Part shown: positions 16,550-63,584 of the stretch, piece after piece
How positions within the stretch are numbered: position 1 is the stretch's first letter
How the letters are laid out: each line of letters opens with the position of its first letter
Notes under the pieces: model-generated
What the model saw: only the letters and a program-made list of their open reading frames with translations
Database searches by the model: none
What the model was told of the DNA's origin: nothing
Made by a program: the position numbers and the translations under genes
Assembly: GCA_015490715.1 (NCBI GenBank)
Contig: WFXH01000106.1
Location: 2,177 to 66,176, forward strand
Direction: 5' to 3'
Source of the DNA: Saprospiraceae bacterium
GTDB lineage: Bacteria; Bacteroidota; Bacteroidia; Chitinophagales; Saprospiraceae
Length of the DNA stretch: 64,000 nucleotides

Positions 16550-16558
16550 TGAAGTGTC

Positions 16559-17539: not shown

Positions 17540-17625
17540 AAGATTTCGCTGCTGGCGAGACGGACAGAGTAAGAGATGTGGGAATCCGCTGAAAGTATTA
17601 ACTTTCGGATAGGAAATGTGGACGG

Positions 17626-18426
17626 ATGAAGATTGTTTTTCCCACGGACTTTTCGGATGCTGCGCTACACGCATTTAGTTATGTGCGGGAACTCGCTGAG
17701 GAGCTCAATGCGGTCGTATCCTTAGTGCATGTGTACGACATGCCGGTGCTGCAGGGGGATTCGGATTTTCTCAATTTGGAGGAGCTCTTAGAAGAGCGTC
17801 GTCAGAAGGCGGAGATGAACTTAAAGGCATTGGCGGGGCTTTTGCCCTTTCACAGGGTGGGGGAGATGCAAGCGGTGTTTGGCATGTTTGTGCCCGATGA
17901 GATCGTCGCATTTGCTGAGCAGGTGCGAGCGGATATGATCGCCATGGGTGCCAAGGGCGAACACTCGCTCATCGAAAAAATTTTGGGTAGCGTGACGACG
18001 CACACGATGTTGAAGTCGCCTGTTCCGGTGTTGTCCATACCCCACGAGGCGGAGTACCGCGGTGTGCGGCGCATTGCCTATGCTACGGATTTGCATCCGC
18101 ACTCGTGGGTGCCGCTGGGATTTCTCAAGCAGATCGCCCAAAAGCTCAATGCGGAGATACGCGTCGTGCACGTGCGCACGCCGGATTATCCATCGGATGA
18201 GGCCATGCTCGAAGTGCCGGCCAGTGGGGATGAAGCGGTGCAGATGGATATCATCGAGCATGAAGATGTGGAGTGCGCGCTCAACGATTACATACAAAGG
18301 GAGCAGATCGACTGGCTGGGGATGTTTATACCGCGCAGGCGATTATGGGAGCGCTTGTTCCACCGGTCGCTGTCGAAGCGCATGTTTTTTCATTCGTCGG
18401 TTCCACTCCTGACGTTTCGTGGATAG
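17626..18426 (+). CDS. Universal stress protein (tandem Usp domains)
   Basis: Two Usp-like halves: 'KIVFPTDFSDAA...AMGAKGEHSLIEKILGSVTTHTMLKSPVPVL' and 'RIAYATDL...'. Confidence 0.75.
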   Translation: MKIVFPTDFSDAALHAFSYVRELAEELNAVVSLVHVYDMPVLQGDSDFLNLEELLEERRQKAEMNLKALAGLLPFHRVGEMQAVFGMFVPDEIVAFAEQVRADMIAMGAKGEHSLIEKILGSVTTHTMLKSPVPVLSIPHEAEYRGVRRIAYATDLHPHSWVPLGFLKQIAQKLNAEIRVVHVRTPDYPSDEAMLEVPASGDEAVQMDIIEHEDVECALNDYIQREQIDWLGMFIPRRRLWERLFHRSLSKRMFFHSSVPLLTFRG

Positions 18427-34700: not shown

Positions 34701-34802
34701 TAGGCTTACCGTGCTCTCTACCGAAAAGTAGTACACAATGGCGGCGATGGCAAAGGTGAGCCATCCGGCTATATTTTTCAATGTCTTATAACTCAACTGC
34801 AT
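31752..34802 (-). CDS. DUF2723 domain membrane protein (GT-C fold, TMEM260-like putative glycosyltransferase)
   Basis: 1016 aa. The N-terminal 'SVESTVSLWDCGEFISAAYKLEVVHPPGAPLF' is the DUF2723 signature. Many TM helices, then a large soluble C-terminal half. Confidence 0.8.
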   Translation of the reverse strand: MQLSYKTLKNIAGWLTFAIAAIVYYFSVESTVSLWDCGEFISAAYKLEVVHPPGAPLFLMIGRIFAWLGDLLSDNPSHIAVAVNLMSATATAFMAMFVALTTVILTKIALVGRIKEPTLADSLISAGAGLVAGLTSAFATSIWFSAVEGEVYALSSFFTAATVWAAVKWYDLPDDREHDRYLVLAFFLIGLSIGVHLLSLLTLPLISILYYFKRFEKHSFVGYALAGLLGTAGIIFIQKFLIAGIPWLWSKFDLFAVNTLGLPFNSGIVFVIIVIGGLLLWGFRLAHRKKSHLLQIAMMAATLMILAYTSYGMVVLRANANPPINMSEPYGPMRLLSYLNREQYGERPLLWGPHYEAKPIGIKSEPRYGRVGDHYEVVDHKLSYEYSDKDKMLFPRISHTDQNRPKIYRMWNTSENKKPTMAFNLSFFLRYQLGWMYWRYFMWNFVGRQNGKQGFYPWDLKNGHYLSGIKPIDEWHLYNMDKLPDRMKNDPSRNTYYFIPLLLGLLGMWFQYRKSPKEFYAILALFIITGIGIIIYSNQPPNEPRERDYVLAGSFFTFAMWVGIGAAALYAFLKKYVQQPHTVALVSTLLALSAPTIMGVENFDDHSRRGHYAARDYAINFLESLSPNAILFTYGDNDTYPLWYAQEVEGIRRDVRVINLSLIAVDWYINSMRRKVNESPPIKLTIPAEAYVGEKRNMVPFPEGLIKNEKPWPIDRVLRHLAQRNPVSTRYGDQVETFLPTRKIYIPVNKKRAIELGMARPTDSIADKIWLNLGNIPYLRKDEIAVMDIIGSNIWDRPIYFAITVRERQMLGLQPYLRLEGLAFRITAVKTDQPRRDLSVFGLGHVDTDLVYKRIMNKFRWGNFDKYDTYVNPSYAPSVQAMKYVMLRVAMELIDEGKKDKAIKLIQKQFEAFPNMNFPFDYQTVSFFNELMRAGDRQTIETYLPDLIDNLIQDLEFYQSLDDEDLQSFEMDVQFTTRALFEVFNILQYLGEDSPVYQKYMPIVSAQLNLNLKQEN

Positions 34803-42502: not shown

Positions 42503-43315
42503 ATGCGAATCTTGATCATTGGTGGGGGCAATATGGGTTCGGTCTACGCGGAGAGCTTTTTAAAATCGCACATCGTAGAGCCTTCGAAATTGATGATTTT
42601 AGAGAAGTCGCCCCAAAAGGCGGAGGCATTGCGGGAGCGCAAGCTCGGGTCGGTATTTTTACGGCCGGAGGAGTGCTTGCCGCATTCGGATCTGGTGGTA
42701 TTGGCGGTCAAGCCGCAGGATACGGGTGAGCTCTTTCGCCAGATTGGGGACATGACGGATACCTCGCAGGTGGTGTTGTCCATCATGGCGGGTGTGAAGA
42801 TGCGCACGATTGCCGATGCGCTAAAGGTGGATAAAATAGTGCGGGCCATGCCCAACCTGCCGGCTAAAGTGGGGCGTGGCATGACGGTGTTTACGGCTGC
42901 CGAGGCGGTCACGCGCATCGAGCTGGCCATGGTGCAAAACCTCATCAACACCACGGGCAAGAGCTTGTACGTCCAGGAGGAATCCATGTTGGATGCGGCG
43001 ACGGCCATCAGTGGAAGTGGCCCGGCGTATGTGTGGTATTTCATGGATGCCCTCGTCGAAGCGGCACAGAATATGGGCTTTAACAAATCGGAGGCTGAGT
43101 TATTGGTGAGCCAGACCTTTTTAGGGGCTATTCAGCTCTATCAGGCGTCGGATTTAGACCTCACGGAGTGGATCCAACGCGTGTGTTCGCGAGGAGGCAC
43201 CACGGAAGCGGCCTTAGCCGATATGGATGCCCATCGCGTGCGCGCATTGTTGTGCTCAGGAGCAGATGCAGCTCTCAAGCGCGCTAAAGAGTTGGGCGAT
43301 GGAAAAGCATCGTGA
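42503..43315 (+). CDS. proC: Pyrroline-5-carboxylate reductase
   Basis: 'ILIIGGGNMGS', 'VLAVKPQD', 'RAMPNLPAKVGRGMT', 'SGSGPAYVWYFMDAL', 'VCSRGGTTEAAL'. Confidence 0.92.
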   Translation: MRILIIGGGNMGSVYAESFLKSHIVEPSKLMILEKSPQKAEALRERKLGSVFLRPEECLPHSDLVVLAVKPQDTGELFRQIGDMTDTSQVVLSIMAGVKMRTIADALKVDKIVRAMPNLPAKVGRGMTVFTAAEAVTRIELAMVQNLINTTGKSLYVQEESMLDAATAISGSGPAYVWYFMDALVEAAQNMGFNKSEAELLVSQTFLGAIQLYQASDLDLTEWIQRVCSRGGTTEAALADMDAHRVRALLCSGADAALKRAKELGDGKAS

Positions 43316-44297
43316 GCAAGAGCCTCCTGTGGTACTGGTAGCCACTGAGGTCCATAATGTCCTCATCGAAGGCTTAAGAGAGTTGGGGTATACGGTGATC
43401 TATCGGCCCTTGTGTGATGCGCATGAGCTTCTGCAGTGGCTTCCGAAGGTAGAAGGGCTCATAGTGGGTTCTGCTTCGGCCCTATCGTGTGCGCTTTTGA
43501 AGCGTGCGGCTCGGCTGCGCTTTATCGGCCGGCCGGGATCGGGCCTGGATCACGTCGATACGGCTTGTGCCGAGGTGCTCGGCATACGTCTTTTTCGTTC
43601 GCCCGAAGGCAATGCAGATGCGGTAGCTGAACACGTCGTGATGGCTCTCCTTGCCTTTGAGAGACAGTTGTTGAAGGCCGACCGCAGCATGCGACAGCAC
43701 CAATGGTTACGACGGCAATTGCGCGGCGTTGAGCTCACCGGTAAGTGCCTGGGCATCATCGGCTGTGGCCATACAGGGGGAGCACTTGCCCAAAAACTCA
43801 GCACATGGGGTATGCAAATACTTGTCTACGATAAGTACAAGACGGCTGTGGAGATGAAGCATCGACTCCCACATATTGAGGTCTGTGATCTCGAAGCGGT
43901 GTTAAAGCGATCGGATTACCTCAGCATCCACGTTCCGCTCACCGAGGAGACGCGACACATGGTCGATAGGGATTTTCTTCGCCGTATGAAACGCGGAAGT
44001 GTCTTGATCAACACCTCTCGTGGAGGAGTATTGGATCTCTCTGCTCTGGTGGAGGCCATGGAGAGCGGTCAACTTCGTGGAGCGTGTGTGGATGTTTTTG
44101 AAGAGGAAAATTGGGATAAGACAAAAGTGTCCGCAGATTTTAAGAGTGCCTACGAACGCCTTGCTTCCCTACCCAATACCATCTTGACGCCCCATATAGC
44201 TGGGCTCACCAACGAATCCCTCTACAAATGCAGTCTATCTTTAATGGAGAAAATTGCTCTATGGAGAAAACAGATGGAAGGCAGAAAGGATGAGTAA
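43299..44297 (+). CDS. D-isomer-specific 2-hydroxyacid dehydrogenase (PGDH-like)
   Basis: NAD motif 'LGIIGCGHTGGALAQKL', 'INTSRGGVLD' and 'TPHIAGLT'. The start is ambiguous: ATG 43299 overlaps proC by 17 nt, and a downstream GTG is possible. Confidence 0.8.
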   Translation: MEKHREQEPPVVLVATEVHNVLIEGLRELGYTVIYRPLCDAHELLQWLPKVEGLIVGSASALSCALLKRAARLRFIGRPGSGLDHVDTACAEVLGIRLFRSPEGNADAVAEHVVMALLAFERQLLKADRSMRQHQWLRRQLRGVELTGKCLGIIGCGHTGGALAQKLSTWGMQILVYDKYKTAVEMKHRLPHIEVCDLEAVLKRSDYLSIHVPLTEETRHMVDRDFLRRMKRGSVLINTSRGGVLDLSALVEAMESGQLRGACVDVFEEENWDKTKVSADFKSAYERLASLPNTILTPHIAGLTNESLYKCSLSLMEKIALWRKQMEGRKDE

Positions 44298-44306
44298 AGA
44301 ATTTTA

Positions 44307-44314
44307 TAACTTTG
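44307..44314 (+). promoter_or_regulatory. Candidate -7 box (TAACTTTG) upstream of the outer-membrane trio
   Basis: Match to TAnnTTTG, 52 nt upstream of ATG 44367 in the 69-nt intergenic gap. Confidence 0.3.
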
Positions 44315-44366
44315 GTGCTTTGAAGTACAGTTGGTAAAGGGAGTGAAAACAAAATACATCGATAGG

Positions 44367-47300
44367 ATGAAGAAGTTACTTGGCATTGCGAGTGCGTGTC
44401 TGCTGCTTATGGGCTATGCACGGTCACAGACGGTGCTTCAAGGGAAGGTAGTGGACTATGAGACGGGAGAGCCGTTGATAGCGGCCAATGTCGCTGTATA
44501 CTCCGACGGCTTGCTTGTGGCGGGTGATGTGACGGACTATGAGGGAAGTTTTCGCATTCCCGTTGATCCGGGCACGTACGAGGTAGAGGCATCGTATCTG
44601 GGTTATCAGACGATGCGGCTGACGGATATCGTGATGGTATCGGGGAAAATTCTCGTGCTGGATTTTAAGCTCAAGCGGGAGGGCGTAGTGCTCAAGGCTG
44701 TAGAGGTCAAGAGCAATAAGCCGCCCATTATCGACAAGGGCAATACGACGACGGGTCGTACGCTCACGGCAGAGACTATTCAAAATCTACCCTCACGCGG
44801 TGTCAACACCATCGTGACGCTTACGGCTGGAGCAACCTCTCAAGATGGAGGGAGCATCAACATCAAGGGAAGCCGAAGTGCGCAGACGGTGTACTATCTT
44901 GACGACATTCGGGTAACCTCTGCCAGCATGATTCCCAGTACAGAGATTGACCAATTGCAGGTGTTGACGGGAGGTATTGGGGCCGAATACGGAGATTTAA
45001 CGGGTGGAGTCATTGCGGTCACTTCGAAGGGGCCTCGAGGTAAGTTTAAAGGAGGCCTTGAGCTGGAGACTTCGCAGTTTCTCGATCCCTACGGCTACAA
45101 TTTGGCCAATATGTACGTCACTGGGCCGATATTGAAACGCGGCACCCGACCATTGCTGGGTTTCCGTGCTTTTGGTCAGTTTTTGTACCGCAAGGAGAGC
45201 GATCCACCAGCTGGAGGCATCTACGCAGCTACCGAAGAGACGATCAATGACCTATCGGTCAATCCGCTGATTAGGAAAGGGGGTATTTTGCTTCCGCGCG
45301 GTGAATTTCTCTCCTTAGGTAATGGCGTCGAACTCCGAAAGACGCGCCCCAACCAACCGCGTACCGATGTGGATTTAGGGGGGAAGTTATTCTACTACAT
45401 CAACGATGCCATGGATCTGACCGTGTCGGGGACGTACTCCAATGTGCACACGCGGTTTGTACCGCGCACATTCAATGGCGACAGTCGTTACAACTACTAT
45501 AGAGGTGCTGGCCCCTGGTATTTTTTCAATTGGCCGTACAATCCCGAGTTTATCCGCAACAACTACACCTTAAACATGCGCTTTCGCCATCGCCTGGGTG
45601 CCAAGTCGTCGATTGCACCTCCCAGCGGTGGGGAGAAGAAGAAAAAGCCCAACACCTCACTGATCAGCAATGCTTCGTATACGATCCATTTGGGCTATGA
45701 GCAGCAAAACTCAGTCGAACAAGATGCGCGACACAAGGATAAGCTCTTCAATTACGGATATGTCGGCAAGTTTGACCGTCGATGGGATACACTCGTACTC
45801 GGTGGGCTTCACATCGGATATCAAGAGCGTCTGGTATCGTACGAGCCTGCCGGCATCAATCCCATTCTTGAGTCGTACAACCAGTACATCGATCGCAAGC
45901 CCAATTTGTACTTTGAGTACAATGCGTACAACGGAGAGATTACGCCCCTGTACACTACGGTGTGGAACGTCTTCAGCAATGTCACTGGTGTGTACAATAG
46001 GTATCAAAAGAGAAAATTTGAGCGCTATACGGGTAAGGTGAAGGTGCAGTTTGACATCATTCCCTTTGGCATATCGCGCGGTGTGCACAACATCGTCGTA
46101 GGAGGTCAGTTTGAGCAGAGGGTGCATCGACTCTGGTCGGCCACTCCCATGGAGCTATGGAGAGCTGCGCGCATCTTAGCCAACCAGCACATCGGCTCGC
46201 TGGATACGCTCCACATCGTGGCTGAAAAGGATGGGGTGCCCATCTACGGCCTTCAGATTGAAGACGATCCCACCGACGTATTTGCCCGCGAAGTGCGCAA
46301 GCTGATGTTCCCCAACGAGCCGCTCATTGGGGAGGATAAAAACGGCACGATGTATCGGTATGTCAATACGGATATCCTATCGCCGGACGATTTGAGCTTG
46401 AGCATGTTTTCGCCGCGTGAGCTCTCCGACTTGCGCGTGTTGTACTTTTACGGTTACGACCACTTGGGCAACGAAACGCCCCTCAATGCGACGTTTGAAG
46501 ATTTCTTTAAGCGCGACGAAAACGGCGTACAGACCTTCACTGTAGCCCCATACAAGCCCATCTATGGGGCATTTTTCCTTCAGGATCGCTTCAACATCGG
46601 AGATATCATCTTCCGTTTTGGAGTGCGTGTGGATTATTTCGATGCCAATCAGAAGGTGTTGAAGGACAAGTATTCGCTGTATCCCATCATGACGGCGGCG
46701 GATTTTCACAGCGATCCGCAAAACGGGCCAAAGCCGCCCAACGTTGGCGACGATTTCAAGGTATATCTGGCCAAACCTGAGTCGAATGTCGTCTTGGGGT
46801 ATCGCGATGGCGATACGTGGTACGATGCCGAGGGTCGTCAGCTCAATAGCGGTAGAGAGCTATTCGGCGAAGGGGGATTGGTCCTGCCGGCCTTTTTGAA
46901 AGAGGATACGTTTTACAAGCTCGAAAGTCCCGCTTTCAATCCGGATTTAGCCTTCAAGGATTACGATCCCCAGGTCAATGTGATGCCGCGCCTGGGCTTT
47001 TCCTTCCCCATCTCCGATGAGGCCAATTTCTTTGCGCATTACGACGTGCTGGTGTCCAGGCCTTACACGGGAAACATCGCAACTGCTTATGATTACTTTT
47101 ATTTCACGGATCCCAACCGCACACCGGTCAATAATCCGGATCTCAAACCCGAAAAGATGATCGACTACGAGGTCGGATTTCAGCAAAAGATCACCGATAA
47201 CTCCGCCATTAAATTGTCGATGTACTATCGCGAATTCCGCAATCAAATTCAATTGCGCAATCTTCTCTTTACAGCTCCCGAGCCCATTAGTTCGTACATT

Positions 47301-48032
47301 CTATTTGACAACATCGACTTTGGTACGAGTAAGGGATTGACGGTCGAATACGAGTTGCGCCGTACGGGCAATGTGCAGATGCTCGTTTCCTATACTCTGG
47401 GCTTTGCAGAAGGCACGGGCTCGGATGAGGTTTCGCAGCGGCAGTTTATCAGCAGGGGCTTCAACATTCGCACCCTGTCGCCGCTCACCTTTGATGAGCG
47501 CCATCGGCTGGTGATGAACATCGATTACCGCTACGGCAGCGGCAAGCAGTACACGGGGCCGGAGCTCTATGGCATGCCGATATTCGAAAATACGGGTCTA
47601 AACATCCAGTTTACAGCAGCCAGTGGCCGTCCTTACACGAAGGCAAAGTTTCCCGGTCGCTTTGGAGGACGCGGCGTAGCGGGCCAAATCAATGGCGCGC
47701 GTCTACCTGCAAACTACACCGTCGACGCTAAGCTGGACCGACGTTTTACCTTCACTCTTGGAGGAAAGAAAAAGATCAACATGTATGCCTACCTGAGGGT
47801 CAATAATCTGTTTGATACGCGCAATATTCTCAGAGTGTATTCCTTTACGGGATCGCCCAAGAGCGACGGGTATTTTACGTCGGTAGAGGGACAAAATTCA
47901 CTGGCTCAGCTGCAACAATCGCGTCCTGAAGATGTGCAGTACTTCATCGAGATGTACAAGTTTCGCCTGCACAATCCGAACTTTTACTCTTTGCCGAGGC
48001 GTATACGCTTGGGCTTTTCCTTCTCATTTTAA
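44367..48032 (+). CDS. CarboxypepD_reg-fused TonB-dependent-receptor-like outer-membrane barrel (1221 aa)
   Basis: Signal peptide MKKLLGIASACLLLMGYARSQ. 'LQGKVVDYETGEPLIAANVAVY...PGTYEVEASYLGYQ' (carboxypeptidase-regulatory fold). Plug region 'TAETIQNLPSRGVNTIVTLTAG...IKGSR...VYYLDDIRV...EIDQLQVLTGGIGAEYGDLTGGVIAVTSKGP'. Long barrel ending 'RIRLGFSFSF'. Confidence 0.8.
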   Translation: MKKLLGIASACLLLMGYARSQTVLQGKVVDYETGEPLIAANVAVYSDGLLVAGDVTDYEGSFRIPVDPGTYEVEASYLGYQTMRLTDIVMVSGKILVLDFKLKREGVVLKAVEVKSNKPPIIDKGNTTTGRTLTAETIQNLPSRGVNTIVTLTAGATSQDGGSINIKGSRSAQTVYYLDDIRVTSASMIPSTEIDQLQVLTGGIGAEYGDLTGGVIAVTSKGPRGKFKGGLELETSQFLDPYGYNLANMYVTGPILKRGTRPLLGFRAFGQFLYRKESDPPAGGIYAATEETINDLSVNPLIRKGGILLPRGEFLSLGNGVELRKTRPNQPRTDVDLGGKLFYYINDAMDLTVSGTYSNVHTRFVPRTFNGDSRYNYYRGAGPWYFFNWPYNPEFIRNNYTLNMRFRHRLGAKSSIAPPSGGEKKKKPNTSLISNASYTIHLGYEQQNSVEQDARHKDKLFNYGYVGKFDRRWDTLVLGGLHIGYQERLVSYEPAGINPILESYNQYIDRKPNLYFEYNAYNGEITPLYTTVWNVFSNVTGVYNRYQKRKFERYTGKVKVQFDIIPFGISRGVHNIVVGGQFEQRVHRLWSATPMELWRAARILANQHIGSLDTLHIVAEKDGVPIYGLQIEDDPTDVFAREVRKLMFPNEPLIGEDKNGTMYRYVNTDILSPDDLSLSMFSPRELSDLRVLYFYGYDHLGNETPLNATFEDFFKRDENGVQTFTVAPYKPIYGAFFLQDRFNIGDIIFRFGVRVDYFDANQKVLKDKYSLYPIMTAADFHSDPQNGPKPPNVGDDFKVYLAKPESNVVLGYRDGDTWYDAEGRQLNSGRELFGEGGLVLPAFLKEDTFYKLESPAFNPDLAFKDYDPQVNVMPRLGFSFPISDEANFFAHYDVLVSRPYTGNIATAYDYFYFTDPNRTPVNNPDLKPEKMIDYEVGFQQKITDNSAIKLSMYYREFRNQIQLRNLLFTAPEPISSYILFDNIDFGTSKGLTVEYELRRTGNVQMLVSYTLGFAEGTGSDEVSQRQFISRGFNIRTLSPLTFDERHRLVMNIDYRYGSGKQYTGPELYGMPIFENTGLNIQFTAASGRPYTKAKFPGRFGGRGVAGQINGARLPANYTVDAKLDRRFTFTLGGKKKINMYAYLRVNNLFDTRNILRVYSFTGSPKSDGYFTSVEGQNSLAQLQQSRPEDVQYFIEMYKFRLHNPNFYSLPRRIRLGFSFSF

Positions 48033-48046
48033 TTAAATGCATTGGT

Positions 48047-51000
48047 ATGATGAAAAGGTTTCAAACGAATAAAAGGCAGAGCAATATGAACATGCTGCGG
48101 TATTTACTCCTTGTCGGGGTGTTTTTGGGACTATGGACTCCTGCGGAGGCCTATATCGTCCCCGGCAAGAAGAAAAAACGCGTGAGCAAAGTAGAGCTGA
48201 GGGAAAAGTGCAAACCACCAGAAGCTTTTGCGGATCTGAGTATCAACAATGTCCGCGCCCGACTGCTTACGGGCGGTGATTTGTGGTGGGACGGAGACGG
48301 CAAAGCGCGTTATGTCGTGCCCAAAGTCGATCCCACCTCGGGAGAGCCGGAAGTGTCCAGTCTCTTTGCAGGCTCGGTATGGATCGGTGGTTTTCAGGGT
48401 GGGAACTTAAAGGCTACAGCGCTCGACTATCGCACACAAGGATTTTCATGGTTTCCCGGTCCTCTTGACGACAGTACAGGGACGACCGATAGAGAGATTT
48501 GCGAGCGCTGGGACCGATTTTTTGAAGTGCTCGGCAAAGAGGTACGGGCTCATATCTCCAATTACAACAAGCGCAAGGAAGAAGGGACGTTGCCCATACC
48601 CGAAGATGAAATTCCCGATGGAGTAAAGTACTGGCCAGCCAAGGGCAATCGCTTTTTTGAAGAGCGATACCTCTTCCCCATCCCCGAGGGCAAACAGGGC
48701 TTTGGAACCTTTGCCGACGTCAATGGTAACTTCATCTATGACCCAGAATACGGCGACTTTCCCACCATCGAAATACGCGGTTGTGCGCTTTCACAAGAGC
48801 AAGTGCCCGACCAAATGTTCTTCTATGTCTACAACGACAAGGGGGCGGAGAGCACGCGCTTTGAGGGAGCCGTGGCCATGCAAATGGAGGTACAAGTGCA
48901 GGCCTTTGCCTATCAGACATCCGATGAGGTCAACGATATGACCTTTTATCGACACAAACTCATCAACCGGGCTACGCAGCGCATCGACAGTACCTACTTC
49001 GCCATGTGGGTCGATCCCGACTTAGGATGTTATGTTGACGACTACATCGGTTGTGATACCACAGGAGAAGTTGTGCTCGATACGGCTGGGAACTTTTTGG
49101 GATACCGCAGCCGAGACTTGATGTTTATCTACAACTCCGATGAGGTCGATGGCAATGTCGGCCCGGAATGCGATCAAGGGGTGCCCACTTATGGTACGAA
49201 CATCCCTATTTTGGGCGTGGACTACTTCCGCGGGCCGAAGGAGTTTTTCTTCGACTCCTTGGGCAATCCCCTCGATACCTTCGTAGAGCTCGGCATGTCG
49301 TCGTTTATGTATTACATCAACACGGGGAGCTCGCCCACGCCTATTCCTCCTATGACCGATCCCGATAAGATTACGGAAGTGTACAACTATATGACGGGGC
49401 GGTGGAAGGACGGCACGCGGCTTACCCTTGGCGGTACGGGCTATGACCCGCAGAGCACAAGGTATACGCGCTATGCTTTTCCCGGCTGGCCCAACGACCC
49501 CAATGGTTGGAGCATGTGTCAGGAGGGAACACCACCGGGTGATTTCCGCACAATACAAGCCTCAGGACCATTTATCTTGCTCCCAGGTGTGAAAAACGAG
49601 CTCATCATCGGCGTGGTATGGGTAGCTGATCAGGATTATCCCTGTCCTTCGTTGGATGAGCTCATTGCTGCAGATGAAAAGGCGCAGGACCTCTTTGACA
49701 ACTGCTTTGACATCACGGATGGACCGTCAGCGCCCAACGTTGACATTATCGAACTGGATCGCGAGCTCATCCTCGTATTGACGAATGATGACCCTACCCT
49801 CAATAACTACAAAGAGCAGTACAAAGAGCGGATCTTAGGCGCACCTCCCCAGATGAAAGATCCGTTTTACTATTTCGAGGGGTATCGCATCTACCAGGTA
49901 GCAGGGCCCAACGTCACGCGTGCAGAGCTCAACGATCCGGAAAAAGCTCGCGAAATAGCCACCTTTGACATCAAAAATGGTGTGAAAAAAATCTACAACT
50001 GGAAAGCCATTCCCAATCCCAACAAGCCCAGCGAACTCGTCTGGGTGCCTGAGCTCAAAGTCGAAGGCCTGGACAACGGCATACGCCATACGCTGCGCGT
50101 CACGGAAGACGCCTTTGCAGAATCAGGAGCCAAGCGGCTCATCAATCACAAGCCCTATTACTTCCTCGTCATTGCCTATGCCCAAAATAATGAGCTTCCT
50201 TTTGATCCAGATAGCCCCCTCACCACCTTTGAAACACCGTATATTGAGGGGCGTCTCAATGTGGGAGACGAAAACGGATTCCCCTACAAGGGTGTGCCGC
50301 GACCCATCATCTATCAAAAGCTCAATGCCGACTACGGCGATGGGCCGAAGATTGAAGCCTACGACGGTACGGGCGTCAACGGGCAGTTTTTGCGAATCGA
50401 TCAAGCCACAGAAGAAAAAATACTCAACGGCACCTTTGACGGCATCATCGGCTATGAAAAGGGTGCAGGCCCCATTCAAGTGCAGATTTACGATCCCCTC
50501 CGATGTAAAGATGGCGTGTTCTGGCTGTATTTTTACGACAGCAACAATCAAGATGCTGTCTTAGACAGCGATGCCAATTGGTATATGGTCTCGGAAGATG
50601 GTGACACCATCTTTTCCGAACGCACCATCGAACGACTCAATGAGCAAATCATCAAGAAATACGGTTTTGCCGTATCCATAGCGCAGACGAAAGAGCCCGG
50701 CTATTCGAAGGAGGACAACAACGGCTTTATCGGAGTAGAATACGAATATGCGCAAAACAAGCAGCAGCCGTGGCTCTTTACCGTGCCCAATGGATTCATC
50801 TACTTGTTTGAATTTCGCGGATTGAATCTCCAATTGCGCGCCTTCGATTTCATACAGAGAAACAACGAAAATATTACTAAAGTAGATCCCGCTGGAGCCT
50901 TTGCTTCGGCCTTTGGCCAGGGGTTTGTCCCCTACATCCTATGTGATCCAGAAACTTCGACAGGTTTAAGCGTCATTTCGCCAGCGTGGAGACACCCCAC

Positions 51001-52183
51001 TTCAGAAAACCACCAGAGCAGTCTCATAAGGAGTAGCAAGGCGTTTGACAACCTCAATAATGTCGACATCGTGCTGACGCCCGATAAATCGAAGTGGTCG
51101 CGCTGTATTATCGTCGAGACGACCACCAGGCCGATGGTTGAGTTTACAGGGCTTCAGACGGTGGGCCGTGCGGTAGAGTTTCAGCTCCGGCAAGATCCCT
51201 CTGTGTCGAAGGATGCCGACGAAAACGGTATGCCCATTCCGGACAATAGCGGAACAGTCGGTATGGGATGGTTTCCGGGCTATGCGATCGATGTGGAGAC
51301 AGGGCAGCGGCTCAACATTTTCTTTGGAGAGGCATCGATCTACAACAATGAAAATTTCTCGGATTTCCTGGATACCATCAAGCCGCAGGATGGGCTCTTA
51401 CGCGGTGCCGATATGATGTTTAATCCGACCGATGAAATGATCTTTCCCGAGTTGCTGTTTGACTTCTTATTGCCGCCGGCTGTGTCGTTTTACGCTGGTG
51501 GTCAGCACAAGATTTACGTGACGAATACGCCGTATGATTCGTGTAAGAGCTTAGTGCGATATTTTGAGCGAAGTCACAACCGCAACATCAAAAGGGGTGT
51601 TGCGAAGATCACCTGGGCTGCGATTGCTACGCTGCAGCCGGGACAGAAGATGCTTTCCTACGCCGAGGGATTGGTACCCGATGAGGTGCGCATACGTTTG
51701 CGCGTCAACAATCCGTATGCCGTGTACAGCCTGACGGGCCAAAACAACGGCCACAACATGTATAAAATCACTTTCGAAGGGGTGCAGGCGCGTCCCATCG
51801 AGGAAGGCGAAGTGCCTGAAGCCCTTAAGGAGGTGCGCGTCGTGCCCAATCCCTATTACGGCCAGTCGGATTATGAGGGCAATCCGCTGGAAAACATCGT
51901 GAAAATCACCAATTTGCCCGAGCGATCGACGGTGACCATCTATTCACTCGATGGGCGCTTCATCCGACAGTATAAGCGCAACTTCCCCAAACCGCCACAG
52001 GGTGCCGTGGTGGGCGACAAGCAGTTTACGCCGGACCTCGTCTGGGATCTGAAAAACGACAAAAACATTCCGATATCGAGTGGCACGTATCTCATCCACA
52101 TTCGCGATGAAGATACGGGTCAGGAACGCATCATCAAGTGGTTTGGTATTATGCGTAAGTTTGATCCATCTACATTGCGTTAA
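48047..52183 (+). CDS. 1378-aa secreted protein of unknown function with a T9SS-like C-terminal sorting domain
   Basis: Signal peptide 'LRYLLLVGVFLGLWTPAEA'. The C-terminal ~115 aa, 'VRVVPNPYYG...STVTIYSLDGRFIRQY...SSGTYLIHIRDEDTGQERIIKWFGIMRK', fits the T9SS CTD beta-sandwich pattern. I recognised no catalytic motif. Starts 14 nt after the upstream gene. Confidence 0.65.
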   Translation: MMKRFQTNKRQSNMNMLRYLLLVGVFLGLWTPAEAYIVPGKKKKRVSKVELREKCKPPEAFADLSINNVRARLLTGGDLWWDGDGKARYVVPKVDPTSGEPEVSSLFAGSVWIGGFQGGNLKATALDYRTQGFSWFPGPLDDSTGTTDREICERWDRFFEVLGKEVRAHISNYNKRKEEGTLPIPEDEIPDGVKYWPAKGNRFFEERYLFPIPEGKQGFGTFADVNGNFIYDPEYGDFPTIEIRGCALSQEQVPDQMFFYVYNDKGAESTRFEGAVAMQMEVQVQAFAYQTSDEVNDMTFYRHKLINRATQRIDSTYFAMWVDPDLGCYVDDYIGCDTTGEVVLDTAGNFLGYRSRDLMFIYNSDEVDGNVGPECDQGVPTYGTNIPILGVDYFRGPKEFFFDSLGNPLDTFVELGMSSFMYYINTGSSPTPIPPMTDPDKITEVYNYMTGRWKDGTRLTLGGTGYDPQSTRYTRYAFPGWPNDPNGWSMCQEGTPPGDFRTIQASGPFILLPGVKNELIIGVVWVADQDYPCPSLDELIAADEKAQDLFDNCFDITDGPSAPNVDIIELDRELILVLTNDDPTLNNYKEQYKERILGAPPQMKDPFYYFEGYRIYQVAGPNVTRAELNDPEKAREIATFDIKNGVKKIYNWKAIPNPNKPSELVWVPELKVEGLDNGIRHTLRVTEDAFAESGAKRLINHKPYYFLVIAYAQNNELPFDPDSPLTTFETPYIEGRLNVGDENGFPYKGVPRPIIYQKLNADYGDGPKIEAYDGTGVNGQFLRIDQATEEKILNGTFDGIIGYEKGAGPIQVQIYDPLRCKDGVFWLYFYDSNNQDAVLDSDANWYMVSEDGDTIFSERTIERLNEQIIKKYGFAVSIAQTKEPGYSKEDNNGFIGVEYEYAQNKQQPWLFTVPNGFIYLFEFRGLNLQLRAFDFIQRNNENITKVDPAGAFASAFGQGFVPYILCDPETSTGLSVISPAWRHPTSENHQSSLIRSSKAFDNLNNVDIVLTPDKSKWSRCIIVETTTRPMVEFTGLQTVGRAVEFQLRQDPSVSKDADENGMPIPDNSGTVGMGWFPGYAIDVETGQRLNIFFGEASIYNNENFSDFLDTIKPQDGLLRGADMMFNPTDEMIFPELLFDFLLPPAVSFYAGGQHKIYVTNTPYDSCKSLVRYFERSHNRNIKRGVAKITWAAIATLQPGQKMLSYAEGLVPDEVRIRLRVNNPYAVYSLTGQNNGHNMYKITFEGVQARPIEEGEVPEALKEVRVVPNPYYGQSDYEGNPLENIVKITNLPERSTVTIYSLDGRFIRQYKRNFPKPPQGAVVGDKQFTPDLVWDLKNDKNIPISSGTYLIHIRDEDTGQERIIKWFGIMRKFDPSTLR

Positions 52184-52196
52184 AAAAAGCAAGAAC

Positions 52197-53285
52197 ATGA
52201 GGAAATACTTGATCCTTTGGAGTTTTTGGTGGATGTTTTTTGGGGTAGGCACTCTACAAGCGGGCAATCCAGACCGACAGGGAGAGGCAGGAGCCTACGA
52301 GTTGCTCATGAATCCATGGGCGCGATCGGCAGGATGGCACAGCATGGCGGCAGCATTTATCAGCGGATACGAGGCCGAGCGCATCAATCCCGCCGGGATC
52401 GTCGGCTTAAACAAGCTGGAGTTGGCCTTTGGGAGTGGGCAGTATTTGGTGCCCAGTGGGGTGACAATGAGTAGCTTAGGTTTTGCCTATCGACTATCGT
52501 CGAGTGCTGCCTTTGGCATAAGCTTGATGAACGTCAACGTCGGAGAGATCGATCTGACCACTGTCACCTCGCCCGAAGGCACAGGCGCCACCTTTTCGCC
52601 CACTCTATTCAATTTAGGGTTGAGCTATGCCTACGAGTTTAAAGACGAGGAAAATCCCAATGCAGGTCGAATCCGAGTCGGTGGGCTGTTGCGTATCATC
52701 TACGAAGGCATTACCGATGCCGTGGCTTCAGGAGTTGGGCTCGATGCCGGCGTGCAATACATTTCGGGCAAACGGGATCAGTTTAAATTTGGTGTGAGCT
52801 TGCGCAATCTCGGCACAAAGATGCAGTATCGCGGTACAGGTCTGGGCGTCGTACTCGTGCCCGGCGACATCCGTACTGAAATACAAGCCGCCGGATTTGA
52901 TATCCCTTCCCTGCTGCACATCGGTGCATCTTATGACCTCTACTTTGGCAAACAGCTGCGAACGACTGTTGCGGGCAATTTTACGGCTAACTCTTACTCA
53001 AGAGACGAAATTGGTATCGGTGCCGAAGTGGCCTTCTTAGAGCGCTTTATGATCCGTGCGGCGTATAAATACGACAACCGCTTTGGCTTCGACCAATACC
53101 TCGACAAGGTCAACAATGCCTATACGGGTCTGAGTCTGGGAGCGAGTTTTATTCTCGATCTCTTCCACACGTACAACGATGACGGCACGGTGCGTTCGAC
53201 CACCAAACTCGCTGTCGATTATTCGTATCGACACAGCAGTCCCTTTGCGGGGACACATAATCTGACACTTGCCATCAAAATATAA
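52197..53285 (+). CDS. PorV/PorQ-family outer-membrane beta-barrel protein
   Basis: Signal peptide from ATG 52197. 'GEAGAYELLMNPWARSAGWHSMAAAFISGYEAERINPAGI' parallels the PorV N-terminal signature (..FLLI.PDAR..G.G..G.A.......NPA.L). About 360 aa of alternating strands. Starts 13 nt after the upstream stop. Confidence 0.6.
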   Translation: MRKYLILWSFWWMFFGVGTLQAGNPDRQGEAGAYELLMNPWARSAGWHSMAAAFISGYEAERINPAGIVGLNKLELAFGSGQYLVPSGVTMSSLGFAYRLSSSAAFGISLMNVNVGEIDLTTVTSPEGTGATFSPTLFNLGLSYAYEFKDEENPNAGRIRVGGLLRIIYEGITDAVASGVGLDAGVQYISGKRDQFKFGVSLRNLGTKMQYRGTGLGVVLVPGDIRTEIQAAGFDIPSLLHIGASYDLYFGKQLRTTVAGNFTANSYSRDEIGIGAEVAFLERFMIRAAYKYDNRFGFDQYLDKVNNAYTGLSLGASFILDLFHTYNDDGTVRSTTKLAVDYSYRHSSPFAGTHNLTLAIKI

Positions 53286-59771: not shown

Positions 59772-61370
59772 ATGCGTAAGAGATTAGTCATCTGGGGAGT
59801 CGACGAAAACGACAAGAGAGTCTTAGTAGGCATTGCACTCAACATCGAAGAAAACCTCATCGACTTATACATCTTTCACGAAGACTTAGTCACGGAAGAC
59901 TTTTACAAAGATTTCATGAAAAAATGGGGGCAAGAAGAGGCGGAGATCGAATTTCCGGAGGGTTACACCCATCTACAGCGCCCCTTGAGTGCTACGGAAT
60001 CCATTCTGCCGGACAATATCAAGGCGGACAATCCCGATATGGTCAGCCGCACGCAAATGGAGTGGCAGTTTCTCGTGCTGGCCGAAAAACTATACGCGTT
60101 TTACAAAGAGGAGCTCGAAAAACTCAAGGAAAAGGCTCAAGATCTCACCGAATTCAACAAAGAACTCTGGGAAGAGCTCAAGAGCTATTCTAAAAAGCTC
60201 AATGAGCAGATCCGCTCGCGCATGCTGTTTAAAAAACACAGCGACGAGCTGAAAAACGAGCTCAACAATCTCTTCCAAAAGCTCAAAGAACTAAGGGATA
60301 GCAGGGTGGTCGATCCTGAACTCGCTGAGGCGTCCAAAAAAATACTCAGCAAGGTCAAGGATATGCTCGCAGAGGTCAAAGAAAAATTTGAAAAAGGCAT
60401 TCACAAACGCATCCTATTCGAAGATCTCAAAAAAATCGAGCAATACTACAAAGAGCACTTCAGCGAAATCCTCCAACCCGATCGGCGTACCATCTATCGC
60501 ATGATTGACGACATGTACAAGGAGATCAAGAGGGTTCGCTTGCAAAGGCCCCAGGAGGGGGATGAAATACGGCGTACAAGAAGCCGCATCAGTGGCGTGG
60601 ACCGATGGCTCGACAAGCACGGCGGACAGCTCAAATCCCTCGAACGAGAACTCGAGCGCCTCGAAAAAAAAGACAGTGCACTTAATCAGCTCGAAGCCCA
60701 GCTGCGAGACCTGCGCATCAACATCATAAAAGAAAAAATAGCAGCCAAGAAGAAGAAGATACAAGAGCTCAAAGATCTCCGTCAAGAGCTCGAAGCGCGT
60801 CTTGAAAAACTTCTGGCTCGAGAAGCAGCCTCCGAAGCATCATCCGATAGTGCCCACCAATCTCAACAAAGCGAAGAAGCTACTCAAACTACTACCCAAA
60901 CAGCTTCGGAGCATTTAGCCGAAGATGAGGCCCAGGGAGGTGAATCCCTGGCGGAAAAAGCCGAGGAGATCGTCGAGACCACCAAAGCCATCGCCAAGGC
61001 CATCACGGATAAGGCCAAGGATGTACTGGAAGACGTAGTGGAAGAAGTCGTGGAGGAGTCCTCTGAAATAATGGAAGACGTCAAGGAATTTATCGGCGAT
61101 GCGGTAGAAAAAATCGAAGAACTGGTCGAGAGCAAGGAAGAGCAGAAAGAGGAAGATAAAGAAATAACTCAAAGCGCTACCGACGAAGAGTCTTCATCTA
61201 CTTCGGCAGCATCCGCAGAGGTAGATCAAAAAGAGGAAATTCAGGAAGAACAGGAGGAGAGTAAGGTGGAGGCCGACCAAGAGGTCGCGTCCGAAGAGGG
61301 GGCAGCGCAACAAGACGAGTCCCCGGAGGAATCTGCAAGCAGCGAAACTGAAGAGGAGAAGACCAGCTGA
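59772..61370 (+). CDS. Hypothetical protein: globular N-domain, long coiled coil and an extremely acidic low-complexity tail
   Basis: 532 aa. Heptad-like K/E/L-rich stretch over roughly residues 110-360. The last ~170 aa are dominated by E/S/A/T/Q. No signal peptide. Confidence 0.55.
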   Translation: MRKRLVIWGVDENDKRVLVGIALNIEENLIDLYIFHEDLVTEDFYKDFMKKWGQEEAEIEFPEGYTHLQRPLSATESILPDNIKADNPDMVSRTQMEWQFLVLAEKLYAFYKEELEKLKEKAQDLTEFNKELWEELKSYSKKLNEQIRSRMLFKKHSDELKNELNNLFQKLKELRDSRVVDPELAEASKKILSKVKDMLAEVKEKFEKGIHKRILFEDLKKIEQYYKEHFSEILQPDRRTIYRMIDDMYKEIKRVRLQRPQEGDEIRRTRSRISGVDRWLDKHGGQLKSLERELERLEKKDSALNQLEAQLRDLRINIIKEKIAAKKKKIQELKDLRQELEARLEKLLAREAASEASSDSAHQSQQSEEATQTTTQTASEHLAEDEAQGGESLAEKAEEIVETTKAIAKAITDKAKDVLEDVVEEVVEESSEIMEDVKEFIGDAVEKIEELVESKEEQKEEDKEITQSATDEESSSTSAASAEVDQKEEIQEEQEESKVEADQEVASEEGAAQQDESPEESASSETEEEKTS

Positions 61371-61387: not shown

Positions 61388-63427
61388 TCAAGGAACAAAT
61401 ATCGCCCTGTCGAATACGCGGTATCCCTGGGAGTTGCGCAGCACAAGGCGGTGCCATCCGGAGGATAAAGCTCGGATAGATACGACAGAAGGACGCCCTG
61501 GGGTCGAGGCAGGAATGCGAATGTGTCGTAGGATTGTTCCATTGGGATGGATGATAGCGCCTTCGAGTGTATCGCCATCGGAGTAGAAGAGCACAAGGGA
61601 TTGCGCAGTGGCGGCGACAGTGATGCGCACGCCGGTGGATTTATTCAAGAAGTACACTAAATTGGAGGAGATAGTCTCTCCACTTTGGAGGAGTGCTTTG
61701 ATGCGATACCACGGGCCCAGGGGCTGCCATTTGCGATGGAGCGGAAGGGTGTAGACAGAGCTGGGGCCTGTTTGCGGTGGGATGAGGGTACAATCGGTAA
61801 AGGACTGTCCATCGTTGGAGGCTTGGAGTATAAAATGGCTGATGGGTTGGGTGGGGGTGAGTTTCCATTGGAGTAAGGGTGGGTTGAGGTGGGGCAGTAG
61901 GTTGAGTTGGATGTGTTTGAATGCAAGGGTTTGGCAGTTGTAGATTTGCATATCGCTTTTGCCGCAGGAGCCCTGGCTGTAGTTGATGACGTCGTTGCCG
62001 GCGTTGAGGTCGTTGGTAGAGAGGGAACGGCGTTCGGTACCATTGGCCAGTGCGTAATGCATGACGTCGTTGGTATTGATGACGTGGCCGAGTTGGTGGC
62101 TATGGCCCAATTCGTGGAGGGCGACGGTTTCGAAGTCGTATTGGTTGTTGGCGGTGCTGTTGTCGGCGGCGTCGTAGTTCCAGTTGGTACCGTCGTTGAA
62201 GACGAGGTCGGTTTCGTCGAGCACCCAGGTAGTACCGCCGTTGCATCCGATGAAGTAGCTGTAGGATTGGCCCAAGACGCCTGCTGGCAGCTCGTTGCCG
62301 TTGTCGAAACGCACGACATTGACGCCGTCGCCGGCGGCCTGGTCGATGTTGGTGGTGCCGTTGTCGTCGAAGTAGACGCCCGTGCCGTCGCAGCGCCAGG
62401 TGTCGAGAGCGCGGCGGAATGCGTCACGCGCCTGTATGTTGTTGTACAGTTCGGTGTGATACTTCAACACGTATCCGCCGCTGCCATCGGCGTCGACCAG
62501 ATTGGTGCGGTATCGGCGGTTGTTGTACGTCACGTTGGTGATGTTGTATTCTACCGTTAGCGACGTGCTGCTCAAGGCGCTGCTTCCGCTGCTGTTGGTG
62601 ACGCGGAATTTGCCGGTACCTGCATCGGTGGGCACTTTGACCTTGATTTGCGTGTCCGACCACGAGACGTATTCTGTGCTGAGGGGCTCGACGTCGATGG
62701 TTGCGCCTCCGTTGTTGGCATTGCTAAACTCGACCCGTCCACTGCCCCTCGAGGCGCCAAATCCACTGCCGTTGATGGTCAAAATGACGCCCTTACCGGC
62801 TTGCACTGCACCAGGTGAAAAACTCGTAATGGACACGGCAAGGGGATCACGCCATTCGGCCTTCGCTCTTCGAAGGGCTTTCTCAATCCAGGAATGCCGT
62901 ATCGGATAGCCCCATTGCTTTAGCAGTGCGTACCATTCGCCATCAATAGATCCATACGAGCCGTATAAATCGTAAGCGCGATTGGTCACGAGGTCGTAGT
63001 ATACGAGACCGGCGTGGGCATAGATAGCTCGAAAACGAGGAAGCTCTGTAGGTCGTTCGTCTACGAGAGCAATAGGTGAGGGTTCGAGTAGCCACATGCC
63101 CGTCTGTCCCACGGAGGGATGCAATGAAGGCACAACCACCTCTCGGCGAGGAAAAATCGTCCCGCCCGGTGAGAGAAGCTCTACGGTAGTGCTGTTCAAT
63201 GTTCCCTTGAGTACCTGATGGACTTGTAGCACGTACACGGTATAGATATGTCCTTGATGGCTATCCATAGCCGTATATGCGTCTTGCACGGTGGCCTCTA
63301 CTACGTGGGAAGCGTTAGTCATTCGCTCTTTTAGCGGTGCTTGCACTATTTGAGCGTTCATTCCTTGAAAGTGGAGTAGGATGGAGAGAGAAAAAATACT
63401 GCAAAAACACCTGTTATACTGTACCAT
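61388..63427 (-). CDS. Secreted metzincin-like zinc metalloprotease with an IPT/TIG domain and a probable T9SS C-terminal domain
   Basis: Signal peptide from ATG 63427. IPT-like 'VSITSFSPGAVQAGKGVILTINGSGFG...GKFRVTNSSG'. Zinc motif 'HELGHSHQLGH' followed by 'DVMHY'. C-terminal 'IRALSSGWHRLVLRNSQGYRVFDRAIFVP'. Confidence 0.7.
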   Translation of the reverse strand: MVQYNRCFCSIFSLSILLHFQGMNAQIVQAPLKERMTNASHVVEATVQDAYTAMDSHQGHIYTVYVLQVHQVLKGTLNSTTVELLSPGGTIFPRREVVVPSLHPSVGQTGMWLLEPSPIALVDERPTELPRFRAIYAHAGLVYYDLVTNRAYDLYGSYGSIDGEWYALLKQWGYPIRHSWIEKALRRAKAEWRDPLAVSITSFSPGAVQAGKGVILTINGSGFGASRGSGRVEFSNANNGGATIDVEPLSTEYVSWSDTQIKVKVPTDAGTGKFRVTNSSGSSALSSTSLTVEYNITNVTYNNRRYRTNLVDADGSGGYVLKYHTELYNNIQARDAFRRALDTWRCDGTGVYFDDNGTTNIDQAAGDGVNVVRFDNGNELPAGVLGQSYSYFIGCNGGTTWVLDETDLVFNDGTNWNYDAADNSTANNQYDFETVALHELGHSHQLGHVINTNDVMHYALANGTERRSLSTNDLNAGNDVINYSQGSCGKSDMQIYNCQTLAFKHIQLNLLPHLNPPLLQWKLTPTQPISHFILQASNDGQSFTDCTLIPPQTGPSSVYTLPLHRKWQPLGPWYRIKALLQSGETISSNLVYFLNKSTGVRITVAATAQSLVLFYSDGDTLEGAIIHPNGTILRHIRIPASTPGRPSVVSIRALSSGWHRLVLRNSQGYRVFDRAIFVP

Positions 63428-63584
63428 AGCCCTGAAATTTGCCAAAATTTTGAATAAAAATACGCATTTTTGGGGAAAATGCATAAATTTTTATGGCTTG
63501 CAAGGTGTTCGGGCTACTATTTCATACAACGCATATCGAGTAGGGAATATTGGTCGATCGGCCAAAGTTTGTAATCTTTGTCGC

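Follow-up and report, generated by a model that had tools for sequence, protein, structure and literature searches.

We examined a stretch of 64,000 nucleotides (nt) from a Saprospiraceae bacterium (Bacteroidota; GenBank assembly GCA_015490715.1, contig WFXH01000106.1, positions 2,177 to 66,176 of the forward strand), here called the window, and in it a group of three genes that seem to encode an outer-membrane module. The three genes, referred to below as genes 1, 2 and 3 or as the trio, lie on the + strand at 44367-48032, 48047-52183 and 52197-53285, with gaps of 14 nt between genes 1 and 2 and of 13 nt between genes 2 and 3. Gene 1 runs from ATG 44367 to the stop at 48032 (its open reading frame, ORF, opens at TTG 44331) and encodes 1221 amino acids (aa), with the C-terminus ...RLGFSFSF and F as final residue; gene 2 encodes 1378 aa, and gene 3, from ATG 52197 to the stop at 53285, encodes 362 aa. 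A preliminary description of this DNA had given these gene calls and spacings, and the coordinates were confirmed; the signal peptides that it assigned to all three products are visible by eye as N-terminal signal-peptide-like segments. The start of gene 2 is ambiguous: ATG 48047 gives the 1378-aa protein with a long charged N-region, while ATG 48086 (M14) gives 1365 aa, is the start called for a 97%-identical gene-2 relative (P0001) and would widen the gap after gene 1 to 53 nt. The parts of the trio are of known kinds, namely a TonB-dependent transporter, a type IX secretion system (T9SS) cargo protein and a carrier of the PorV/PorQ family.

Gene 2 is predicted to be a Sec-exported protein of 1378 aa, multi-domain and mostly beta, and, since it has no lipobox cysteine, it should not be a lipoprotein. 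Neither a Pfam domain nor a full-length NCBIfam model matches it, and when Pfam and NCBIfam were run on 33 members of its family nothing was found outside the sorting domain described below. A single-sequence search of the PDB gave no match, and the family profile recognised there the sorting domain only. AlphaFold models residues 35-1234 with confidence (predicted local distance difference test, pLDDT, 89.3; predicted template modelling score, pTM, 0.77), and the structures to which Foldseek likens this core are beta-super-sandwich domains of glycoside hydrolases, glycoside phosphorylases, an amine oxidase and a mutarotase. These matches are weak (TM<=0.28), and we do not take them to indicate that the core is an enzyme or binds a sugar ligand. 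The family is very large: among the representatives of a protein library clustered at 50% identity, 6,057 were found at E<=1e-3 and 1,256 at E<=1e-30, and in contigs from a collection with one genome per species relatives of gene 2 are encoded at no fewer than 599 places. The query of the representative search was residues 1-1200.

The last ~115 residues of gene 2 (residues 1263-1378, positions 51833-52180, + strand) are, as judged from profiles and from the predicted fold, a T9SS-type sorting domain, a beta-sandwich closest to those of PorZ and PorU. The C-terminus matches the C-terminal part of the NCBIfam model of PorZ with E=1.2e-5 (model positions 665-751, 24 bits, where the full-length cut-off is 260), and the family profile searched against the PDB ranks PorZ (8e-4) and PorU (0.018) first. 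A model of residues 1240-1378 (pLDDT 85) has as its best two Foldseek matches PorZ 5m11 (E=6.5e-6, TMq 0.57) and PorU 6za2 (E=7.9e-4). The likeness stops there, as neither the PorU sortase model NF033707 nor the PorZ model NF052228 matches gene 2 over its full length; the PorZ match is confined to the C-terminal ~90-110 residues, and the PorU model is matched in relatives, at its C-terminus only. Among 21 relatives of gene 2 that are of the trio type, the PorZ C-terminus is matched in 12, the PorU C-terminus in 5 and TIGR04183 (at E<=0.01) in 11, and some relatives are labelled 'T9SS type A sorting domain-containing protein' by the Prokaryotic Genome Annotation Pipeline (PGAP). Pfam finds no type-A sorting domain (PF18962) in gene 2 of the window, and the type-B model is matched neither by gene 2, in NCBIfam or Pfam, nor by its relatives. 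The preliminary description had proposed a T9SS sorting domain at this end of the protein, and the PorZ and PorU matches, by sequence and by fold, bear this out, though the score on TIGR04183 stays below the cut-off. After the last strand of the domain comes a conserved C-terminal tail (MRKFDPSTLR, residues 1369-1378, positions 52151-52180, + strand). PorZ and PorU are the two proteins of the T9SS that retain their sorting domains, by which they are held on PorQ and PorV, respectively; it has been proposed that the cognate PorV-like barrels shield the sorting domain from cleavage (PMC10202324). A scan of 35 ORFs of the window revealed no T9SS core gene.

Gene 3, on the basis of family models, is a predicted outer-membrane barrel of the PorV/PorQ family, in a clade apart from PorV, PorQ and PorV2. 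It passes the family model NF033709 (102.9 bits, cut-off 90, residues 36-361) and stays under the equivalog cut-offs of PorV (NF033710, 41.3 bits against 250), PorQ (NF033711, 53.7 against 220) and PorV2 (NF052325, 34.8 against 325), while PorP/SprF (TIGR03519) gives 16 bits with a cut-off of 90.55. With the gene-3 family profile, PorV of Flavobacterium johnsoniae (6h3i_F) is the sole significant relative in the PDB (E=1.2e-10); PGAP names the orthologues of gene 3 'PorV/PorQ family protein', and some of them carry weak precomputed matches to PF11751. The family assignment made in the preliminary description thus holds, the barrel being neither FadL nor PorP/SprF. It should be noted that 'PorV2' could not be adopted as a term of the literature: the one match found in connection with T9SS is an artefact of a superscript citation, and gene 3 fails NF052325 anyway. 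We also considered gene 3 as BamG-like and gene 2 as BamH- or BamM-like, and rejected this, because those partners in the machinery for beta-barrel assembly (BAM) are lipoproteins and the profile of gene 3 retrieves PorV but none of the BAM subunits.

Gene 1 is predicted to be an outer-membrane protein of the TonB-dependent-transporter type, with a SusC-like N-terminal layout and outside the SusC/RagA family. A CarboxypepD_reg-like N-terminal extension (residues 24-103, positions 44436-44675; PF13620, 54.4 bits, cut-off 32.3) and a plug (residues 132-215, positions 44760-45011; PF07715, 30.6 bits, cut-off 23.9), both on the + strand, pass the Pfam cut-offs, in agreement with the domain order first described, and the barrel is matched only weakly. 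Between extension and plug lies a candidate TonB box read from the sequence (VVLKAVEVK, residues 107-115, positions 44685-44711, + strand; family consensus LDxVVVxxYK), which we take to resemble the TonB boxes of SusC-type proteins. A family profile built from 19 orthologues recognises the plug domains of Cir, PirA and PfeA (E 3e-14 to 1e-6) and the N-terminal domains of the TonB-dependent receptor 6ytc and of the SusC homologue 9hfj, the resemblance to SusC being confined to the N-terminal extension domain. No barrel is matched by Pfam in gene 1 of the window; among the orthologues, those of loci L085 and L170 of our survey match PF00593 (L170 faintly) and that of L003 matches PF14905. The SusC/RagA model (TIGR04056) is absent from the NCBIfam matches of gene 1 at E<=0.01, and a SusD/RagB partner, which the preliminary description had found missing, was not found in the ten neighbouring ORFs scanned.

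The conservation of the trio was surveyed with our own hidden Markov models of the three proteins, in 80 loci from species-representative genomes and 79 loci from metagenomes. About 138 of these loci have genes 1, 2 and 3 in an unchanged order on a common strand, at 28-60% identity, the lowest values being 28-36%, and with median gaps of 34 and 76 nt. These loci come from Saprospiraceae, Lewinellaceae, Chitinophagales, Cryomorphaceae and Vicingaceae, with examples in Haliscomenobacter hydrossis DSM 1100, where the trio lies at about CP002691.1:5109709-5118598, in a Cryomorphaceae genome and in Vicingaceae, so that the trio is kept far beyond close relatives. The window itself is 97% identical to JALWKB010000168.1. 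The taxon-labelled relatives of gene 2 are all Bacteroidota (Saprospiraceae, Lewinellaceae, Haliscomenobacter, Phaeodactylibacter, Chitinophagales, Cryomorphaceae, Vicingaceae), and no labelled relative from outside this phylum occurs among the best 80-150 matches of each search. The earlier suggestion that gene 2 belongs to a family present in other phyla of the Fibrobacterota-Chlorobiota-Bacteroidota group thus found no support among these matches.

A new finding of this survey is that the type of sorting domain carried by gene 2 and the occurrence of genes 1 and 3 vary together. Copies linked to a trio end in '...SGVYLIH....GE..KWFG..R.FDPSGL' or '...KWFGVMRP.DLD.F', that is, in the sandwich followed by the conserved tail of ~10 residues, while the other copies have an ordinary type-A-like ending, '...K.(L/I)V(L/I)', and PF18962 Por_Secre_tail is matched by 8 of 12 tail-less members. 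Gene 3 is adjacent to 148 of the 154 tail-bearing copies (it is not in 6) and to none of the nine tail-less ones. Five of these nine (L086, L087 and L167-L169) are fully stand-alone, with neither gene 1 nor gene 3 in the ~1-8 kb of flanks available. The association of the tail with an adjacent gene 3 gives Fisher p = 2.8e-11 with all nine tail-less copies and 5.8e-7 with the five stand-alone ones only, values to be taken as indicative only, since the loci are not phylogenetically independent and include a few duplicates. Genes 1 and 3, for their part, are nearly always both present or both absent.

Taking these results together, we consider it fairly probable that genes 2 and 3 encode a cognate pair of cargo and carrier or anchor which works with the gene-1 transporter, and that the trio is a conserved outer-membrane module of Bacteroidota. 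Gene 2 would be exported by Sec and then picked up at the T9SS (SprA) translocon by its own carrier, gene 3, and not by the general PorV, in keeping with the general rule that a substrate is recognised at the translocon by its cognate carrier (PMC10994853). It would depart from the translocon bound to gene 3 and stay there by means of an uncleaved sorting domain, in the manner of PorZ on PorQ and of PorU on PorV, so that gene 3 would be the membrane anchor of gene 2; the tail is probably the specificity element. For type-B sorting domains, it is established that neighbouring genes encode cognate pairs of cargo and carrier (PMC12618676; PMC10994853). Gene 1 is strictly linked with gene 3, which suggests that gene 2, once anchored, works at the transporter. 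It would act beside gene 1, probably by capturing or processing a substrate for TonB-energised import through gene 1. An association of this sort has a parallel in the TonB-receptor-like CHU_1606, which co-purifies with PorV, and in PorF, which is required for gingipain secretion (PMC8564354). Of the dedicated surface complex proposed in the preliminary description, the part concerning a private carrier and its cargo is strengthened by the PorZ/PorU-like domain and by the co-variation with genes 1 and 3. Going farther, one may imagine that many environmental Bacteroidota have a non-lipoprotein lid, a giant T9SS-delivered protein that a private carrier of the PorV family would tether permanently on or next to a TonB-dependent barrel, the tail selecting this carrier over the general PorV; this we put forward tentatively, as a possible arrangement and on balance a somewhat doubtful one.

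Several observations weigh against the reading of the trio as a cargo/carrier pair with its transporter. The domain of gene 2 scores 17.7 bits on TIGR04183, under the cut-off of 23, and the Foldseek search of its core against the PDB gave only a weak domain-level resemblance to sugar-binding super-sandwich domains (E>=2e-4, TM<=0.28), which points to no ligand. The barrel of gene 1 is weakly recognised, with NCBIfam E-values of 3e-10 to 2e-6 that lie far below the cut-offs in score. Relatives of gene 2 with an ordinary sorting domain occur without genes 1 and 3, from which it follows that the core of gene 2 can work without them, and a few tail-bearing copies lack the neighbours (L077, L082). 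Finally, the tightly spaced same-strand run of the window goes on past both ends of the trio, into unrelated housekeeping genes.

The nearest known systems are PorU-PorV and PorZ-PorQ of the Porphyromonas gingivalis attachment complex, where a large T9SS cargo has a retained sorting domain that binds a barrel of the PorV/PorQ family (PMC10202324), as gene 2 would do if its domain is likewise retained. Unlike PorU and PorZ, gene 2 shows no similarity to either protein outside the sorting domain, and it has the extra tail of ~10 residues; unlike PorV and PorQ, gene 3 fails both equivalog cut-offs, and that of PorV2 too; and a gene for a TonB-type transporter is part of the unit, which sets it apart from the PorU and PorZ pairs. 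The type-B units of F. johnsoniae (SprB-SprF, Fjoh_3952-Fjoh_3951) resemble genes 2 and 3 in that a cargo gene is followed by the gene of its own carrier. Their carriers are specific and stoichiometric and remain as anchor, and several orphan cargos can share one carrier (PMC12618676). However, gene 3 falls outside PorP/SprF, the domain of gene 2 is type-A-like and the type-B units described in PMC12618676 have no transporter gene.

With SusCD/RagAB the trio shares a TonB-dependent barrel with N-terminal extension, followed by the gene of a surface-exposed partner, in a conserved pair (for SusCD, PMC12611786). It differs in that the scanned neighbourhood has no SusD/RagB homologue and gene 1 no SusC/RagA match, and in that the partner, gene 2, is a predicted non-lipoprotein of ~1,300-1,400 aa which seems to arrive at the surface by way of T9SS and a PorV-like anchor. 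PorF (PG0534) and CHU_1606 are comparable as barrels of the TonB-receptor type with a functional or physical link to PorV, the latter by co-immunoprecipitation in C. hutchinsonii (PMC8564354), but gene 1, at ~135 kDa, is larger than CHU_1606 (~91 kDa), and PorF is not described in PMC8564354 as encoded together with a private cargo and carrier. In BamG-BamH, the FadL-like BamG docks on the larger BamA and holds the surface protein BamH by its extracellular loops (PMC12578637; PMC12611786), a geometry similar to the one considered here; however, BamH is a lipoprotein and not a T9SS cargo, and the large barrel of the trio is of the transporter type and not BamA. Full-text literature searches found no description of the whole architecture, in line with the preliminary description, which knew of none. 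Nor did they return a private carrier of the PorV family that serves a type-A-like domain and lies outside the attachment complex, the coupling of such a carrier to a transporter gene, or any account of the gene-2 family.

Other explanations of the locus have to be weighed against the cargo/carrier reading. One, the model of the preliminary description, is a strict analogue of SusCD, in which gene 2, held by gene 3, would open and close on the extracellular face of the gene-1 barrel as a substrate-binding lid in place of SusD. It would account for the position of gene 2 directly downstream of the transporter, where susD usually stands, in the about 138 loci, for the SusC-type N-terminal layout of gene 1 and for the joint presence or absence of genes 1 and 3, and contacts between two barrels have precedents in CHU_1606 with PorV and in BamA with BamG. 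We nevertheless regard it as rather unlikely, since gene order is all that places gene 2 as a lid, gene 2 is ~2.5 times the size of SusD and no SusD structure appears in its Foldseek matches, gene 1 matches no SusC/RagA model, and the stand-alone relatives of gene 2 show no need for a barrel partner. Another possibility is that gene 1 is an accessory for the secretion of gene 2, either a PorF-like barrel associated with T9SS or a TonB-dependent exporter like Oar that assists the movement or release of the giant cargo, and not an importer of nutrients. Oar of Myxococcus, which also has CarboxypepD_reg and a plug, is said to be needed for the secretion of PopC. The strict link of gene 1 to the cargo/carrier pair would fit such a role, as would the requirement of PorF (PG0534) for gingipain secretion and the co-purification of CHU_1606 with PorV (PMC8564354). 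Yet gene 1 (1221 aa) is far larger than CHU_1606 (91 kDa), its plug, TonB-box-like strand and barrel are standard equipment of importers, and the relatives with a canonical domain are presumably secreted with no partner of this kind, so that we find a secretion accessory very unlikely.

As to the fate of gene 2, it could be supposed that gene 3 is a transient private shuttle which passes its cargo to the PorU sortase, where the domain would be lost and the protein released or linked to lipopolysaccharide like type-A cargo, the adjacency of the genes serving only to match expression levels. TIGR04183 is still matched by 11 of 21 trio-type relatives, or about half, some carry the type A label of PGAP, and PorV itself is a recycling shuttle (PMC10994853). 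On the other side, the best matches by sequence and fold are the two uncleaved domains, those of PorZ and PorU, the extra conserved tail marks the copies that have a private carrier, and the dedicated carriers studied to date remain with their cargo as anchors (PMC12618676; PMC10202324); a transient shuttle seems to us, on this evidence, quite improbable. It is extremely unlikely, finally, that the three genes are chance neighbours with no shared function in a long same-strand run of housekeeping genes. This would explain why the tight run passes beyond the trio on both sides and why the promoter motif, discussed below, is not conserved, but in several families, at 28-60% identity, the three genes retain their order, strand and short spacing as the flanks change, and the type of sorting domain co-varies with the neighbours.

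If the tethered non-lipoprotein lid imagined above is real, the trio would represent a third class of cognate T9SS carrier/signal pair and a direct link of type IX secretion to TonB-dependent uptake. Gene 2 is among the larger families of bacterial surface proteins without a Pfam domain or a full-length NCBIfam model, and it occurs in lineages important for wastewater, freshwater and marine particle degradation (Saprospiraceae, Lewinellaceae, Cryomorphaceae). The co-variation of domain type and private carrier hints at the way in which T9SS cargo is directed to one carrier or another and escapes cleavage, a question that is open for PorZ and PorQ (PMC10202324). Should the link to the transporter be physical, it would be a further way for transporters to obtain surface-exposed partners, in a phylum known for SusCD systems. 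Cultured hosts of the system include Haliscomenobacter hydrossis DSM 1100, Neolewinella agarilytica DSM 24740, Neolewinella antarctica DSM 105096, Membranihabitans marinus CZ-AZ5, Lewinella sp. JB7 and Phaeodactylibacter.

Additional paralogues of gene 2 were found just past the trio in several loci (L002/L010, 11240-15265; L036, 12439-16440; L140, 7872-11873 and 12024-14717; L098, 2558-6619 and 7875-11852; L009, 5583-8138; L134, 11889-13415; L166, 13953-17018). Some of them have the full tail, and others a shortened tail ('KAFVVQRPL') or an ordinary ending. Those in L002, L036, L098 and L140 recall the orphan cargos of F. johnsoniae, and a single gene 3 may serve several cargos of the gene-2 type. 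In L002, a Bacteroidota metagenome-assembled genome, the tandem paralogue is followed by an ORF of 803 aa without Pfam match (15288-17699).

The organisation of the locus makes a three-gene operon plausible, although its limits are not fixed. No terminator is predicted between the genes of the trio, where gaps of 14 and 13 nt leave no room for one; a strong terminator at these places would have spoken against the operon proposed in the preliminary description. On the 5' side a 2-Hacid_dh gene (43227-44297) ends 69 nt before gene 1, on the same strand, while on the 3' side a glyoxalase gene begins 17 nt past gene 3 and is directly followed by TauE, again on the same strand, with DUF2807 also among the downstream genes. 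As this tight same-strand run continues on both sides, the transcription unit may be longer than the trio. The promoter of the TAnnTTTG type that had been proposed ahead of gene 1 was recovered as one consensus match, TAACTTTG (44307-44314, + strand), a Bacteroidota-type -7 promoter-like motif 53 nt 5' of the gene-1 ATG, but it is not conserved in related loci, where the motif is not enriched 5' of gene 1 (14 of 118, background 8%). A second consensus match, TAAGTTTG (52156-52163, + strand), lies within the end of gene 2, 41 nt 5' of the gene-3 ATG, and could be an internal promoter; motifs of this type are not enriched 5' of gene 3 either (13 of 133 related loci). Since TAnnTTTG is frequent in the window (35 matches observed, 25.6 expected), the motif by itself is weak evidence, and its conservation 5' of genes 1, 2 or 3 was rejected, with 10-14% of 118-133 loci having it against a background of 8%.

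In related loci the flanks of the trio are partly shared. 2-Hacid_dh stands upstream in about half of the Saprospiraceae loci, and GreA and HIT-family genes stand downstream from Saprospiraceae to Cryomorphaceae (L001, L002, L085, L170); the window departs from this GreA/HIT flank, with glyoxalase, TauE and DUF2807 instead. In two distant genomes a second, shorter TonB-dependent receptor gene was seen a few kb upstream of the trio (L085, 1-330; L170, 1-1426). It encodes about 820 aa with CarboxypepD_reg, Plug and barrel, and genes for PcrB and AdoHcyase lie between it and the trio.

Elsewhere in the window, an ORF of 1016 aa at 31752-34802 (- strand) has an N-terminal domain like that of the O-mannosyltransferase TMEM260 (PF11028, residues 36-218), and its remaining ~800 residues have no Pfam or NCBIfam match. 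At 61388-63484 (- strand) a protein of 698 aa combines a TIG domain with a metalloprotease domain of the matrixin type (M10), and the adjoining ORF at 59772-61370 (+ strand, 532 aa) has a sole match far below threshold (17.1 bits, cut-off 125); no match to a T9SS sorting domain was seen in either of these two ORFs. The + strand of the window is G-rich in every 2-kb bin (GC skew 0.1-0.32), irrespective of gene orientation. Exactly over the trio the skew falls to about 0 (-0.007 to 0.09), and the GC content is slightly lower there too.

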